DNA of 64,000 nucleotides, taken from Fistulifera solaris. Its lineage: Eukaryota. Location of the stretch: assembly GCA_030295235.1 (NCBI GenBank), contig AP026127.1, positions 248,001 to 312,000 on the forward strand, given 5' to 3'. Made by a program: the position numbers and the translations under genes. The notes beneath the pieces were generated by a model that was not told the DNA's origin, did not search any database, and saw only the letters and a list, made by a program, of their open reading frames with translations. Below, one piece after another: positions 18,867-25,149 of the stretch (the first letter of the stretch is position 1; each line of letters begins with the position of its first letter).

Positions 18867-21040
18867 ATGAGGCGTTTATTGCGGTTCGGCTTCTGCCCGC
18901 TCGTGCTTTTCTTCTTGCTGACAGCCGTAAGCTGCTTCAGGGAAATACGTTATAGGCAACATCGAATCATCGAATTGAAATTAGCCGAACAGCACGAAGC
19001 TTCATCCGCAGCAACTGCGGCGATTCCATCTGATACCATCGTGACTCCAAAAGAATCCGAGGAAACAACTATCGAAAAAGGAACAAAGAGTCCGAAACAA
19101 CAACCAAAAACATTGATTTCCGATCATCCGATACTATCATTAGACCCTTCGAAAGGCTACAATGTCGTCTTGACCCATTCGACGGCCGATTTTGATTCAC
19201 TCGCTTCCGCGGTCGGCTTGGCCAAATTATGGTCGGCCGAAGCCGTCCCTTCTTCCTCGGACGTCAAATCCTTTGACAGTGCCAGTCATGTACCGACGTA
19301 CGTAGTGCTACCCCGTGGTGCTCATCCGTCCGTGCAACGTTTCCTGTCGCTGCACAAGCATTTGTTTCCCATTCGATCCTTGAAAAGTCTCCCATCTCCC
19401 GCCGGGCGTCTCAATCGGTTGGCTCTTGTGGATGCTCAACGCAAAGAACGATTAATACCGGCCGAAGGCTTGCTGGAACACGCCAAGCGTATTACGGTCG
19501 TCGATCATCATGTCGATCAAGATTCGGATATTGCGGCCGATGATTATGTCGTCGACAAGGTTGGGAGTGTGACCACGTTAATAGCCGAACGCTTGCAACA
19601 GCAAGAATTATCACTGACGGAAGCGGAAGCGACACTGCTGGCTTTGGGGATTCATGCCGATACGGGCAATTTGTGTTTTGACAATACGACACCCCGAGAC
19701 GCCTACGCATTGGCCTGGTGTTTGTCGCAGGGCGCGAGTCAAACCGCGATTGCCGAACACGTCAATTCGCCGCTCAGTCCTGAACAACAGAGTGTTTTGA
19801 CGCGGGCGTTGTTACACGTCAATACGACCGTCGTTAATGGGGTCACGATTTCGACGGTCCTGTTGCAGGCGGATGCTTTCATACAGGGCTTGGCAGCGGT
19901 CACACAAGATGCGTTGGAATTGAGCAGCAGTGATATTTTCTTGATGGGATTGGTGTACGGAACCTCGAAAAGAAAAGATGACTTTACTGTTTCAGTACAG
20001 GCTCTCCTGCCTTCCTTATTACCACTCAATAAAGATGTCTCTGAAACGGAACAGTTCTTACGTGATGCTTTTCGTGAGCGAGATTTAGATCAGTCGGGAC
20101 ATCTAGATGCTACAGAAATAAGTCGCGCTTTGAATCAAGCTGGAGTAGTGACCACTCCCTCACAAATTCAAAGGCTGGTCCATGCTATGGATGCAGACGG
20201 TGATGGTCAAGTAGATTGTCAGGAATTTGTGGATTTTGTCATGGCACAACAACAAAAGCAACAGCAGCAGACCAAGAAGAATCACATGATTGTAATTGGT
20301 CGTGTGAAAGCAAGTGCCAATTTGAAAGACGTAAAGTTAAATCATTTGTTAGAACCGTTTGGAGGAGGCGGACACCCGAAAGCAGCGTCGGCCACCGTGC
20401 GGGTCTTGGAGGAAACGCAGGCCGCCGAAATTTTGCAATCGCTCGTCGACCAACTGGTGGAACACGCCTTACCCGAACAAGCCACAGTAGCTGATTTCAT
20501 GATGAGTCCCGTCTTGTCGGTGACCCCCGACATGACTGAAGTACAAGTAGAACGCCTCTTTACACGCTTGGATGTCCGGGCCCTGCCGGTGGTCAATCCG
20601 ACCGACAATACGGTCATTGGATTAGTCACTTACAAAGAAGTGGCTGCCGCGAAGCAACGATTGTGGAATAAAGAACAGAAGCGTCAGCAACAAGAACAAC
20701 AGGCGTTGGAAAAGGTGCACCACTTCCCGTGGCGGACGAAAAGCAATTGCACACGACCGTCAAAGCGTGGATGAAACAACATTTTCAGACCGTCGAAGTG
20801 AGTGCGACGATGCAAGATGTGGAATTGATTTTGTTGGAGAACGATATTGGCTGTATACCGGTGGTAGAAACGGGAACTCACACGTTGGTAGGAATGGTGA
20901 CACGAACAGATTTGTTACGACAACATCGCTACTATCCGTCTCTCCCGTATCACAACAAAGGCATGGCCGATTCGATCGCCGCTCGGAAACCCATGATTGA
21001 ATTGCGGAAACGTCTGAAGCGATTTGATAACGAGTTATAG
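18867..21040 (+). CDS. DHH/DHHA1 phosphoesterase with inserted EF-hand pair and C-terminal CBS pair; probably plastid-targeted
   Basis: Motifs THSTADFDS, VDHH, GIHADTG and GGGGHPKAAS. EF loops DLDQSGHLDATE and DADGDGQVDCQE. CBS motifs VRALPVV and IGCIPVV..GMVTRTDL. Signal peptide ending VSC-F. 1-bp frameshift in the A-run near 20710. Confidence 0.85.
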
Positions 21041-21376
21041 AATTGATGGCTGACCATTTTCGCAATGATCGCATCACTCCAATTCACGCTATGTTTACTA
21101 CTCTTGAAACGCTTGCTACCTCTAAGCACAAACCTGATTCATTCGAATAAGACTGCGGTCTATGCTAACAACAAAATCCGATTACCCACAGATTATTCTA
21201 GCATACATTTATTTCTTGAGTTCTTGACATCATCAATCATCAGTCATCTTGCCAAGCTGGTTACTAAAGCTCTTAAACGATGATAGTGAGCATGATTTAT
21301 TTTGTTATAATTATAGTATGGCAAAGGACTAACAAAGGCGACGAAGTGATGATTCCATCCTCCAGTTTCTGCTTTT

Positions 21377-22069
21377 TTACTGAGCCCCGTAATCACATTG
21401 ATATTCCGATTGTGACAGAATTAACGCGGCAATTAATCCATACAATCCCAAGTTGGACGCAAAAACTTGAATCAATACCGTGCCCACAAAGAGCGCATCA
21501 CCACTGCTCGTGACTTGTCCACCACTATCTCCCGTAAATCCCATTTTCTTCCACGAAGCCGCCATATGCGATTGCGCTCCGACTGCCCGTGTCCCGGCAT
21601 CGGCCGCAATCCCAATCGCCAATCCCGACGCCAAACTGCACAAGCCGCAACACAACCCGGCGGCAAGGTGCGAAAAGCCATTGTATTGCGAATAGGTGGC
21701 AAAGCCGTCCGCCGCGGGCATGGTGAATTTTCCGTTCAAAATGACGGCCACGATCAATCCATAAATGCCCAAAACACCCGCCATGACGACTGGAATAATA
21801 TTTTTCATCAACAATTCCGGAGATCGAACGCCCATGGCCATGAGACCTTGTCCCGCTTTGGCCGTCCCGTACGCGCCGCCGAGGTCTTTTTGAACGAGGA
21901 GTCAGAGAATGAATTATAAATGCTGCAGTTAAAGTTCTTTCGACTTACTCGCAAACACAACCGCACTGGCAATACCGGCAAAGCCCAATACGGGCGCCCA
22001 ATGAGGACACGTATAACTGAAATTCGCATCGTTGAGGCCATTGTTTTCGTAATAATTCTGTTCGGCCAT
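21377..22069 (-). CDS. V-ATPase V0 proteolipid subunit c paralog, atypical
   Basis: [40 protein letters not shown] and LGLYGLI motifs. Intron 21886-21948. Confidence 0.9.
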
Positions 22070-22744
22070 ATTGTTGTTGTTGTGTTAATCAAAAATGAAA
22101 ACGACTGATGTTATTGATTGCTTTCCTTTCAACAGCAACAACACACGCCCATTGCAAGTCTTTATTTTCGTTGTTGTTTCGACGCGAGGACGACGAGAAA
22201 AATACGCGTGTGCGACGAACTTCCATCGGATGGTTCGTTCATCAGCGATCAACGGAAAATTGTAATATAGTACAAATACTCATTATTATACGATCATGAA
22301 GACTATTCCATCATGACCTAGCTACTTAATTAACGGCTACCAAGCGAGCCAATCCCATACGGTACTAATATTTAGACAAGCTTCTTTCAACAACGGACAT
22401 GAAAAAAGCAAGATTGGATTTTAGTCACGGCCAGATAGTCATCACCTCCACGGCTTTTTTCTTCAACCCGTTTCTTCGTCCGCACCGACGAAGCTTTTTT
22501 TGTTGACACGCAACAACATTCCTTTTTCGAGGAACAACAAATAATACAATCGACAATTCCTAATATTATTGGTCTTTTTAGCTGCGCATTTACGCATCGC
22601 AGTCTTTCCTTTGTAACTTTCATTCAAGTTATAGAAAGATCAAGTTTGAGTGTGTTGAAGCTCGGAAAGAGAAAGCACAATCACTTCGAATCGCGTTTGA
22701 CGACAAAAATTGAAAGTTTCTTATCTTTCTTTTCTGTACAAACC

Positions 22745-25149
22745 ATGATTTCCCTCCAACGACTCCTCTTCATCGTCGGCGGGCTGTTTTGTATAGAGGT
22801 TTCAGCTTTATCCAGTACAACCATCAATCCGACCAGTCGCTTGCAAAAAGCACGATTACTGCTGGAAGAATACACTTCATCCGAAGCACTTTTACTCAAC
22901 AATACTGCTGCTGCGGAAGATACGTCCCCCAATGCCGTAGCATCTTCCGCCTGGCGGAATGGGCACCTTGTCGGCAATGATAAAGTCGTAACACGATGGT
23001 CGCAAGGCGTCCAAGTGGCGGAACCCGTCAAACGGTACGATCCCATATTGGCGCAACAACAACTTTTTCGTCAACCGACCAAATGGTTGGTTCGGAACGT
23101 CCAAATTGCTTGGCCATTGGGGTGGTGGGCGGTCGGTGTCATTACCGATTATGTCTTTCAAGAGAAAAACAATCGTCGGAAACGCGCCGAACAATTGCGG
23201 CAAGCCATTTCCAGTCTCGGGCCAGCCATTATCAAAGCCGGACAAGCCTTGAGCAGTCGTCCCGATTTGTTGCCGGCGGAATATTTGGAAGAATTGCAAA
23301 AATTACAAGATGATGTCCCGCGCTTTCCCAATGAAGTGGCCTTTCGGGTGGCCTGTGAGGAATTGGGCATTGACGATTTTGAAAGTGTCTTTTGTTGGAA
23401 CAAGAAGAACCTGTGGCGGCCGCGTCGATTGGGCAAGTCTATAAGGCGCGCTTGCAAGCCAATGGGGATGTCGTTGCCCTCAAGATTCAGCGACCCAATT
23501 GTGAACAAGTCATTGCTTTGGACTTGTACATTTTGCGATGGTGGAGTGGCGTATACAATCGCATTTTTCAAATATTGCAGCGTGATATTGACTTGCAAGC
23601 TGTGATGGATGATTTTGGGGAATTGATTTACCGTGAGATTGATTATATTGCGGAAATGTCCAATGCGCAACGCTTTCAGGAGCTCTATGCTGGAGTGCGG
23701 GATGTCTTTGTGCCCCGGGTGTATTCGGAATTGACGACGAGCAAAGTACTTACGATGGAGTGGGTGGATGGATTTCGTTTGACGGATCAAGACAGTTTAC
23801 AGAAGTATGGCCTCGATAAAAGTGCTCTGGTGGATACGTTGGTGCAGTGTACATTGAAACAGATTCTCGAAAATGGTCTTTTTCACGCTGATCCGCATGT
23901 ACGTTTGATGACTTTAGATTTGTTGTTACTTGCAAGCATATTTCCTAACCTTGCTGATATTTTCCTACCAACAGGCGGGAAACTTGCTGGCTACCCCCGA
24001 TGGACGCTTGTGTTATTTGGATTTCGGCATGATGAGTTATGCAGCACAAAATCAACGCAATGGATTCTTGTTAGCAGTCGTTCACATTGTCAACAGAGAT
24101 TGGGCGGCGCTGGTACAGCTGTACGTCCAACTTGGTTTCATTCCAGAGGGTACTGATTTGGAACCCATTCAAGTGGCGTTGGAGCGAGCACTCCCAGATG
24201 TGTTGAATGCAGATATTACCGAACTGAACTTTAAGAACGTCATTAACAAGTTGGGCGATGTAAGTGTGACACGAATCATTCGCTGTTCTCGGTCTGCCAT
24301 TCTCACATGCGCTTGACTCGCTCATCGAAGATCATGTACACGTATCCATTTTCACTGCCGCCTTTCTACATTGCCATTATTCGTTGTCTTGGTGTCTTGG
24401 AAGGGCTTGCTATTCAGGTTGATCCCAAGTCACGTATTATCAGTAAGGCTTATCCTTACATCGCGAGTCGGGTATTAACCGATCCCCAAGATCCACTCCA
24501 AGAAGCTTTCAAGAGACTAGCATTCACTCCTGAAGGATCCATTCGTACAGAACGGCTGGAGAGTTTGTTGGATCAAGCAAAAGACGCGTCTGGTTACGAT
24601 GTGACTGCTGCTTTGAACTTGTTGGTGGATAAGTACTTACTAGCGCCGGATTCCGATCGACTTCTGGAGCAAATGTCTGATCAAATTGTACAAGCAGTGG
24701 ATACTTTGGGCATGGAAACCGTTCAGTACCTGGCTAAAGCCGGCCAAGCGCTGGCCATCAATGATGAAGTCGCTGCTGTTCGTGCTTTTCGATCAATACA
24801 ACAGCTGCTGGATGCCAGAGTTCGAGCGGATAGCGAGGACGAGGGCGACTCGCCAAAATGGGAAACGTCTTTGGAACTGCCGGAAATGCCTCCAACTATG
24901 CGAAGGTCCCAGAAAATTCTTGACTTATTATTATCGCAATCGGCAGAAGGTAGCGATCCTGCCAAATTCGTTCCGCTCGTACGGAAACTAATACAAGACG
25001 AACGCATTAGGCGGTCAGCGCAGGATGTGGTGGCTCGTGTCGGTGAACGAGTTCTGAGCCGAAGCTTGCGAAGTACTTTTGGGCTACCGCCTCCTCTTTT
25101 TGGAAAAGCAAGCTCACTCTCCACCGTCACGGAAGACCGAGAGAAATAA
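22745..25149 (+). CDS. ABC1K/UbiB atypical kinase, probably plastid
   Basis: IKAGQALSSRPD, AAASIGQVY, VALKIQRP, FHADPH-AGN and LDFGM motifs. Introns 23899-23974 and 24260-24330. Frameshift in the T-run near 23390. Confidence 0.9.

Follow-up and report, generated by a model that had tools for sequence, protein, structure and literature searches.

In this study, we describe a gene of the diatom Fistulifera solaris that encodes a paralogue of the proteolipid subunit c of the V-ATPase (an ATPase of vacuolar type) and that has lost the codon for the proton-carrying glutamate. The gene lies on a 64,000-nucleotide stretch of assembly GCA_030295235.1 (contig AP026127.1, positions 248,001 to 312,000, forward strand), which we call the window and to which all positions refer. 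To judge from its sequence, the encoded protein is a family member by fold and sequence without the family's defining functional feature, the glutamate in helix 4. In canonical subunit c this residue (E137 in yeast Vma3) is essential for H+ transport, and the window protein should be unable to bind a proton in the usual way. The substitution of the glutamate and a 24-residue insertion recur in all of the 120 closest proteins, which is far beyond chance. The comparisons presented below indicate a genuine proteolipid that is expressed and under strong constraint and that keeps the surfaces for packing against other c subunits and for facing subunit a. We suggest, and would give this reading an even chance, that it acts as a low-copy 'blank tooth' in the ring of the membrane sector V0 beside canonical c, lowering the number of protons moved per ATP (H+/ATP) and/or braking the rotor.

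The features on which this description rests are listed here; counts for the glutamate-less clade refer to a column comparison of 63 full-length members with nine canonical c proteins of ochrophytes.

21377..22069, minus strand: whole coding region of the glutamate-less V-ATPase proteolipid c paralogue, two exons and one intron, product of 209 amino acids
21731..21820, minus strand: helix 2 of the structure model, residues 63-92, no Glu (MAGVLGIYG)
21416..21505, minus strand: helix 4 of the structure model, residues 168-197, the carrier of the essential Glu in canonical c
21479..21481, minus strand: codon ACG of Thr176, position -8 from the glutamate site, Thr in 61 of 63 clade members, Met in canonical c
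21467..21469, minus strand: codon CAA of Gln180, position -4, one helical turn before residue 184, Gln in 63 of 63, Leu in canonical c
21455..21457, minus strand: codon TCC of Ser184, where canonical c has the essential Glu (E137 of yeast Vma3), from direct reading and alignments
21452..21454, minus strand: codon AAC of Asn185, position +1, Asn in 63 of 63, Ala in canonical diatom c
21500..21571, minus strand: insertion of 24 residues, Ser146-Gly169, in the cytoplasmic 3-4 loop, a gap in all nine canonical rows
21536..21553, minus strand: WKKMGF motif within the insertion, present in 63 of 63 full-length members and in Tetraparma

The original prediction, which was made from the letters of the DNA alone, held that the helix-4 glutamate is replaced by serine, that helix 2 has no glutamate either and that TCC differs from both GAA and GAG at all three codon positions. 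All of this is borne out by direct reading and translation, and an alignment to solved c chains made with phmmer places Ser184 opposite the Glu of their 'lilifaEalalyg' segment. Of 7321 candidates in a word-indexed protein search, 7079 matched at E <= 0.001; in the best 120 of these 7079, which are 79-100% identical to the window protein, position 184 is Gly in 61, Ser in 59 and Glu in none. The possibility raised with the prediction that orthologues retain the glutamate thus finds no example among the 120 closest proteins. A second possibility raised there was a compensating carboxylate in another helix, and no acidic residue is conserved within the membrane part of the four modelled helices in the 63 full-length sequences. 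The acidic positions that are conserved in the clade are Glu/Asp64, Asp136, Asp160 and Asp170. Two of them have counterparts in canonical c, where Asp136 is shared and position 170 is acidic too (Glu), and both lie at cytoplasmic helix ends; residue 64 is located in the cytoplasmic 1-2 loop (Gly in canonical diatom c) and Asp160 in the cytosolic insertion. The core conclusion of the prediction, a non-protonatable paralogue of proteolipid c, is therefore supported on both counts. As to function, the prediction had offered a changed H+/ATP coupling, a role as inhibitor or assembly factor, or a V0 role without pumping, and the present comparisons do not discriminate among these.

The replacement of the glutamate is part of a larger change in helix 4. 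The canonical residues Met176, Leu180, Glu184 and Ala185 have become Thr176 (61/63), Gln180 (63/63), Gly or Ser184 (36 and 27 sequences, respectively) and Asn185 (63/63) in the clade. Since positions 176, 180 and 184 are spaced i, i+4 and i+8, they are expected to line one face of helix 4, which is the face that bears the glutamate in canonical c. The LGLYGLI segment of the same helix is also kept in the clade. Helix 2 has stayed the same, with a consensus identical to that of canonical diatom c over the 21 residues 69-89, and it contains Met75 and Tyr82, which are invariant in all 63 full-length members. According to the accessible part of a study on the yeast V0 rotor (PMC7541076), M59 through its backbone carbonyl and Y66 through its hydroxyl hold the ring glutamate; based on the conserved M-x6-Y spacing, Met75 and Tyr82 probably correspond to these two residues. 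Further invariants specific to the clade lie mainly in the inner helices and loops (Trp24, Val37, Gly44, Ala51, Arg61, Ser62, Lys68, Asn91, Ser127, Ala135, Thr139 and Ala144).

The assignment to the proteolipid family is based on several lines of evidence. The Pfam family ATP-synt_C (PF00137) matches in two stretches (E 3.4e-23 with exon 2, 1.9e-25 with the whole product), and a phmmer search of solved structures finds V-ATPase c chains at 4.1e-32 to 8.3e-25, with c'' chains scoring more weakly (6e-16 to 1.6e-11) and Enterococcus hirae NtpK at 8.5e-4. By these scores the window protein is nearer to subunit c than to c'' or to the bacterial and archaeal K subunits. An AlphaFold2 model (pLDDT 77.3, pTM 0.69) has helices at residues 25-61, 63-92, 107-154 and 168-197, preceded by 24 unstructured residues, of which residues 1-17 have a pLDDT below 50. 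Among the top 15 Foldseek matches of this model are V-ATPase c chains from yeast, mammals and citrus (target-normalised TM 0.85-0.93, rmsd 1.5-3.0, identity 42-47%), and the ring chain 4bem_J of Acetobacterium woodii is also matched at E 2.2e-6. The model is thus in agreement with the four-helix double-hairpin fold of subunit c having been kept in the paralogue. Look-ups in the ESM Atlas returned generic proteolipid clusters only, and a complex prediction for canonical diatom c together with the window protein gave a score of 0.01 against a mark of 0.34, which counts neither way on binding.

The second feature that sets the clade apart is the insertion between helices 3 and 4. The original prediction had counted about 22 extra residues here; the insertion itself stands, and its length against canonical diatom c is 24, which is close to that count. 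The core, S-x-M-x-x-S-W-K-K-M-G-F-[TS]-G-D-x-G-G-Q, equals the helices in its degree of conservation, with M148, S151, W152, K153, K154, M155, G156, F157 and G159 present in 63 of 63 sequences. Among the best 120 of the 7079 relatives, WKKMGF is kept in 119 and the remaining one has WKRMGF. In the model, helix 3 runs into the insertion and ends at Lys154, after which comes a loop modelled at low confidence (block pLDDT 52-56); the net charge of the insertion is +1. Because the 3-4 hairpin of V-type c faces the cytoplasm, the lengthened hairpin of the model probably protrudes past the neighbouring subunits. The phmmer alignment matches the second half of the insertion together with the start of helix 4 to the canonical loop (GDAGVRGTAQQPRLFVG), and for this reason the insertion may have begun as a partial duplication of that loop. 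An in-frame stretch of 51 nucleotides with GT..AG borders (21504-21554) could have pointed to an unspliced intron instead of a protein insertion. This was rejected, as a contig that is spliced elsewhere is unbroken over this region (see below) and the insertion is conserved as protein.

The coding region starts with an ATG at 22069-22067 on the minus strand, as seen by direct reading, and its 209-residue product is 100% identical to the database protein P0003 (hypothetical protein FisN_2Hh110, Fistulifera solaris). It is made up of the following parts.

21949..22069, minus strand: exon 1, Met1-Ala40 and the first base of the Asn41 codon, encoding the N-terminal tail and helix 1 up to its middle
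21886..21948, minus strand: intron of 63 nucleotides, GTAAGT...AAG, with GT..AG borders and in-frame stops, skipped exactly by a contig of run X2 and by another of run X3
21377..21885, minus strand: exon 2, the remainder of the Asn41 codon to Gln209, with the TAA stop at 21379-21377

Translation of exon 1 gives 40 amino acids and that of exon 2 a stop-free 168 amino acids (P0001), with the Asn41 codon split by the intron. Four sequencing runs contained the locus; none of them is recorded as RNA, a label they carry only as a guess, and the evidence of transcripts is taken from the spliced joint. One contig each in X2 and X3 joins 21949 to 21885 and skips 63 nucleotides (CT..AC on the plus strand), in line with the earlier claim that frame and intron are intact. 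X2 record 9 is unbroken over 21279-21885 and thus runs through the insertion. Taken together, this means that the intron is real, that transcripts exist and that the insertion is present in the mRNA. Many other clade members are transcripts of the MMETSP collection. Runs X1-X3 also contain a second expressed copy of the gene, which is an allele or a homeologue (we take F. solaris to be allodiploid). This copy differs by 18 bases in 17 codons over window positions 21642-21787 and 21949-22037, and all 18 differences are synonymous, which indicates purifying selection on the gene. With a transcribed and spliced gene and a second copy that differs only synonymously, the concern attached to the original prediction that the gene might be unexpressed or neutrally decaying does not hold. 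Just upstream of the ATG, 108 bases are skipped by a contig of run X1 (22077-22186), and there may be here an intron in the 5' untranslated region or an indel of the second copy.

The original prediction had also raised the question of whether a glutamate-less clade is conserved in other stramenopiles, and this is the case for diatoms and for Tetraparma. Named members come from both pennate and centric diatoms and include Epithemia, Seminavis, Craspedostauros, Pseudo-nitzschia, Attheya, Odontella and Cyclophora. When representatives clustered at 50% identity were searched exhaustively, 3213 matched, and among these is a protein of the parmalean Tetraparma gracilis (P0302), which has WKKMGF together with QVFASN; unnamed Tetraparma-like proteins were found as well. 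No named member from outside the diatoms and Parmales is among the best 150 of the 3213 representatives, which is not proof of absence elsewhere. A divergent subgroup that includes Aulacoseira subarctica has QVFAGN and, in place of WKKMGF, a Lys/Gly-rich insertion. The clade was recovered in two quick maximum-likelihood trees with SH-aLRT values of 97 (25 of 52 rows) and 96 (18 of 54 rows). Canonical diatom c (FAEALGLYG) is separate and more conserved, mostly with 97-100% identity among Nitzschia, Amphora, Fragilariopsis, Skeletonema and Thalassiosira, and both types are encoded by Aulacoseira subarctica (P0129, glutamate-less; P0346, canonical). Trees in which the window clade (class I) was constrained with classes II and III, or with canonical diatom c, had a slight advantage in score over the quick unconstrained tree. 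Of the tree results, only the diatom and parmalean glutamate-less clade itself is used here.

Some records of canonical diatom c call for a comment. In P0132, P0133, P0135, P0156, P0170 and P0187, all predicted from metagenomes, unrelated sequence follows directly after LGLYG, and P0132 and P0187 return to the normal C-terminus after this stretch. The canonical gene thus seems to have an intron at this point that is absent from the window paralogue. The first half of P0130 resembles the glutamate-less clade and its second half is canonical (FAEALGLYG), which may be explained by a chimeric assembly or by a real intermediate.

Glutamate-less c paralogues were also found in haptophytes. A search with P0146 of Prymnesium parvum gave at least 120 matches, and 109 sequences were examined, namely the query, 106 of the matches, P0149 and P0232. 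The pattern GMVLIQG[TC][AG]SAL[GAS]MYG is present in 42 of these 109 sequences (P0146, P0149, P0476-P0514 and P0517); only Prymnesium parvum (KAL1525071.1, which is P0146) is named among them. They resemble the window clade in being c paralogues with Ser at the glutamate site and Gln at -4, and, as in Aulacoseira, a canonical c (P0536, FAEALGLYG) coexists with the glutamate-less P0146 in P. parvum. They differ from it in that they lack the WKKMGF insertion, or any other long one, and in that Val-Phe is replaced by Gly-Thr/Cys and the Asn at +1 by Ala. In the tree, this clade falls together with the canonical c of haptophytes (SH-aLRT 98), and a single origin of the diatom and haptophyte glutamate-less groups was not rejected by the AU test (p 0.457). 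A Gln one turn ahead of a small residue at the glutamate site thus appears to be a recurrent replacement of the carboxylate, by convergence or by descent. The same pair, Gln at -4 and Ser at 0, is present without an insertion in P0260 (UniRef A0A914C1A8) of the nematode Acrobeloides nanus, which reads ILIQAFASVLGLYG. The unnamed P0255 (YAGALGLYG) is glutamate-less and has no insertion. Both P0260 and P0255 are single long-branch records and could be errors or pseudogenes.

Long 3-4 loops are not confined to the window clade. A class of proteins that retains the glutamate (FSEALALYG; P0140, P0294, P0190, P0181, P0186, P0213 and P0214) has 'WGTWKSG' in helix 1 and an acidic 3-4 insertion, whose net charge is -7 in P0140 as against +1 in the window protein. 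Class III proteins have a loop insertion and no Gln at -4; P0199 (SFAGALGLYG) and P0209 (SFAGATALYG) are glutamate-less, and the record of P0196 ends before the helix-4 motif. Constraining the acidic-loop class, class III and the window clade to one group gave a tree with a better score than the quick unconstrained one, which might suggest that the long-loop paralogue predates the loss of the glutamate.

Within the 64-kb window, a tblastn search with P0003 matched a single locus and no second proteolipid gene was found. About 340 bp past the proteolipid stop, at 20672-21040 on the plus strand, there is an open frame that encodes a CBS domain (PF00571, E 1.3e-10), and the two genes are convergent. 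On the other flank, the open frame at 22439-23605 on the plus strand has no Pfam match at E <= 0.001.

How could a proteolipid that does not carry a proton be used in a rotor? The accessible part of PMC7541076 states that in the eukaryotic V0 ring no proteolipid is without an essential glutamate, that the subunit a arginines R735 and R799 engage the ring glutamates in turn, that a ring stretch without glutamate (the '0-glu transition') is the slowest and rate-limiting step, and that the uneven spacing of glutamates is one cause of the autoinhibition of free V0. We propose that a glutamate-less subunit at one or a few positions of the V0 c-ring would pass subunit a and deliver no proton. The neutral stripe of Thr, Gln, Ser and Asn, together with Met75 and Tyr82, could offer hydrogen-bond partners to the two arginines, and with this stripe the ATP-driven rotor would step over a site at which it would otherwise stall. 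One proton fewer would be moved per turn, and H+/ATP would change from n/3 to (n-1)/3, for example from 10/3 to 9/3 for a yeast-like ring with ten sites; a lower H+/ATP would in turn allow a steeper pH gradient to be attained. The wider glutamate-free gap would also present a greater barrier to passive back-rotation, and free V0 would be tighter against back-leak of protons. The protruding basic hairpin with WKKMGF is probably a label by which a cytosolic partner recognises this place in the ring; subunit d and the N-terminal domain of subunit a would be examples of such a partner. That the protein is competent to enter a ring is suggested by the retained helix 2 consensus, LGLYGLI, Met75 and Tyr82. 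The coexistence with a canonical c in Aulacoseira and Prymnesium also speaks for the proposal.

Several points weigh against this proposal. Yeast c'' and c' are each present once per ring, and according to the same part of PMC7541076 mutation of c''E108 or c'E145 abolishes proton pumping, and a glutamate-free gap of three or four helices cannot be driven even by ATP hydrolysis. That a stripe of Gln, Ser and Asn would rescue such a gap is our own proposal, and membership of the glutamate-less subunit in the V0 ring, as well as its copy number there, is presumed. The hairpin, which is modelled at low confidence, could clash with subunit d rather than dock onto it. In addition, a canonical c labelled as F. 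solaris is not among the 120 matches listed in the search that showed canonical diatom c, or among the cluster members read, although this is not proof of its absence.

The yeast data just mentioned can also be read in another way. A glutamate-less subunit might lock the rotor and produce a V0 that does not rotate, as a dominant-negative or parking subunit that creates proton-tight, non-pumping sectors; such sectors might serve membrane fusion, scaffolding or sensing, or set the fraction of active pumps. The abolished pumping in the single-copy glutamate mutants, the rate-limiting '0-glu' step and the autoinhibition of V0 by uneven spacing, as reported in the accessible part of PMC7541076, all fit this explanation, as do the retained ring-packing surfaces and a conserved cytosolic motif that could recruit partners other than V1. 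However, the invariant stripe of Thr176, Gln180 and Asn185 would be needless for killing the site, for which any hydrophobic residue would suffice, and the recurrence of the Gln(-4)/Ser(0) pairing in haptophytes suggests that the site still acts at the interface with subunit a. We consider a rotor lock unlikely, though a serious alternative. Less likely again is that the protein has left the V-ATPase altogether and forms a homomeric or mixed ring or pore of its own, channel-like or structural, with WKKMGF as an interaction surface. The loss of a catalytic residue combined with the gain of a conserved cytosolic motif does resemble a change of function, and the inner-helix differences (Val37, Gly44, Ala51, Ser127, Ala135 and Thr139) could alter the packing partners. 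Against this, a helix 2 consensus that is identical over 21 residues is hard to explain without packing against canonical c or subunit a, and an independent function of a dedicated c paralogue was not found in the literature searched.

Two further explanations are contradicted by the sequences. The protein could still transport protons by means of a hidden carboxylate or some other titratable group, for which the conserved Glu/Asp64, Asp136, Asp160 and Asp170 would be candidates; with no acidic residue conserved in the membrane-embedded helices of the 63 sequences, this is largely refuted and we regard it as very improbable. That the gene is an artefact of sequencing or assembly, or a pseudogene in decay, is refuted, and practically no weight is left for it, by the intact frame, the spliced contigs from two runs, the second copy with synonymous differences only and the relatives across diatoms that are 79-100% identical, none of which has the glutamate in 120 proteins. 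Among these explanations we favour a glutamate-less subunit working at one or a few positions of a rotating V0 ring. A wider version of this reading is that two mineralising algal groups dominant in the ocean, the diatoms with Parmales and, through convergence or common descent, the haptophytes, build rotors with a proton-blind tooth, in which Gln at -4 and Ser or Gly at 0 act as a 'stepping stone' over the gap at which the yeast enzyme stalls, so that H+/ATP is lowered and detached V0 is braked and leak-proof, and in which, in diatoms, WKKMGF indexes the tooth to a partner; we put this forward only tentatively and consider it rather doubtful as a whole.

A comparison with known systems shows where the window protein stands. 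With canonical c (yeast Vma3, mammalian ATP6V0C and plant VHA-c; 36qu, 7uw9, 6vq6 and 6o7u) it shares the fold and the two PF00137 repeats, and it differs in Ser/Gly for Glu, Gln at -4, Asn at +1, Thr at -8, the 24-residue insertion and, in its clade, a longer N-terminal tail with the invariant Trp24. The extra N-terminal helix of subunit c'' (Vma16/ATP6V0B) and the glutamate of its helix-2-equivalent segment are both absent. Yeast c' (Vma11) is similar in being a lineage-specific duplicate of c that is kept beside c, and is the likeliest model for a paralogue becoming a ring member at a single position. This subunit is reported to be specific to fungi and is found at one fixed place of the ring; it evolved by complementary loss of interfaces, as Finnigan et al. 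2012 reportedly found. Chains of c' are among the best PDB matches of the window protein (5tj5_D, 4.1e-28), but c' keeps its glutamate (E145), and the window clade is diatom and parmalean and unrelated to c' in the trees.

In function, the window protein is most like the engineered yeast single-site mutants and, more loosely, like the hybrid rotor of Acetobacterium woodii. The engineered yeast rings with mutated c'E145 or c''E108 have one ring subunit without a proton carrier, as the window gene would create if its product is a ring member. These rings are dead according to the accessible part of PMC7541076, whereas the diatom protein is natural and conserved and has polar residues and a loop motif that are absent from the mutants. 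The F/V-hybrid rotor of Acetobacterium woodii (4bem) is a natural mixed ring, composed of nine one-site subunits and one V-type subunit with a single site, as described in the available portion of PMC9171764, so that the helices of its special subunit could accommodate more ion sites than are present. This rotor belongs to a bacterium, is coupled to Na+ and is of the F-type, and its special subunit still has one site where the diatom protein has none. By analogy, it may be seen as a precedent for rotors that tolerate missing sites.

A glutamate-less paralogue of eukaryotic V-ATPase subunit c is not described in the full-text literature searched; subscription-only papers and supplements lay outside this search, and a prior report is possible. 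A proteolipid orthogroup (K02155) is listed among silica-associated proteins in PMC13403384, in the accessible part of which the glutamate is not mentioned. The named members of the clade belong to silicifying lineages, the diatoms and Parmales, and haptophytes have a similar glutamate-less clade.

Diatoms are major primary producers and silicifiers, and it is in these organisms that a proteolipid without the glutamate is held under strong purifying selection. The finding matters because the yeast data predict a stalled pump from such a gap. If the protein is a ring member, rotor gearing (H+/ATP) and leak-proofing would be tunable by a dedicated blank subunit, and Gln at -4, Ser or Gly at 0 and Asn at +1 would be the natural sequence solution; if rotors with a proton-blind tooth do exist, this would be a new natural principle of gearing and braking in eukaryotic rotary pumps. 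If it is not a ring member, it would be a proteolipid with a new function and a new conserved cytosolic motif. Either way, the protein may have a bearing on the acidification or sealing of diatom compartments, for example the silica deposition vesicle.

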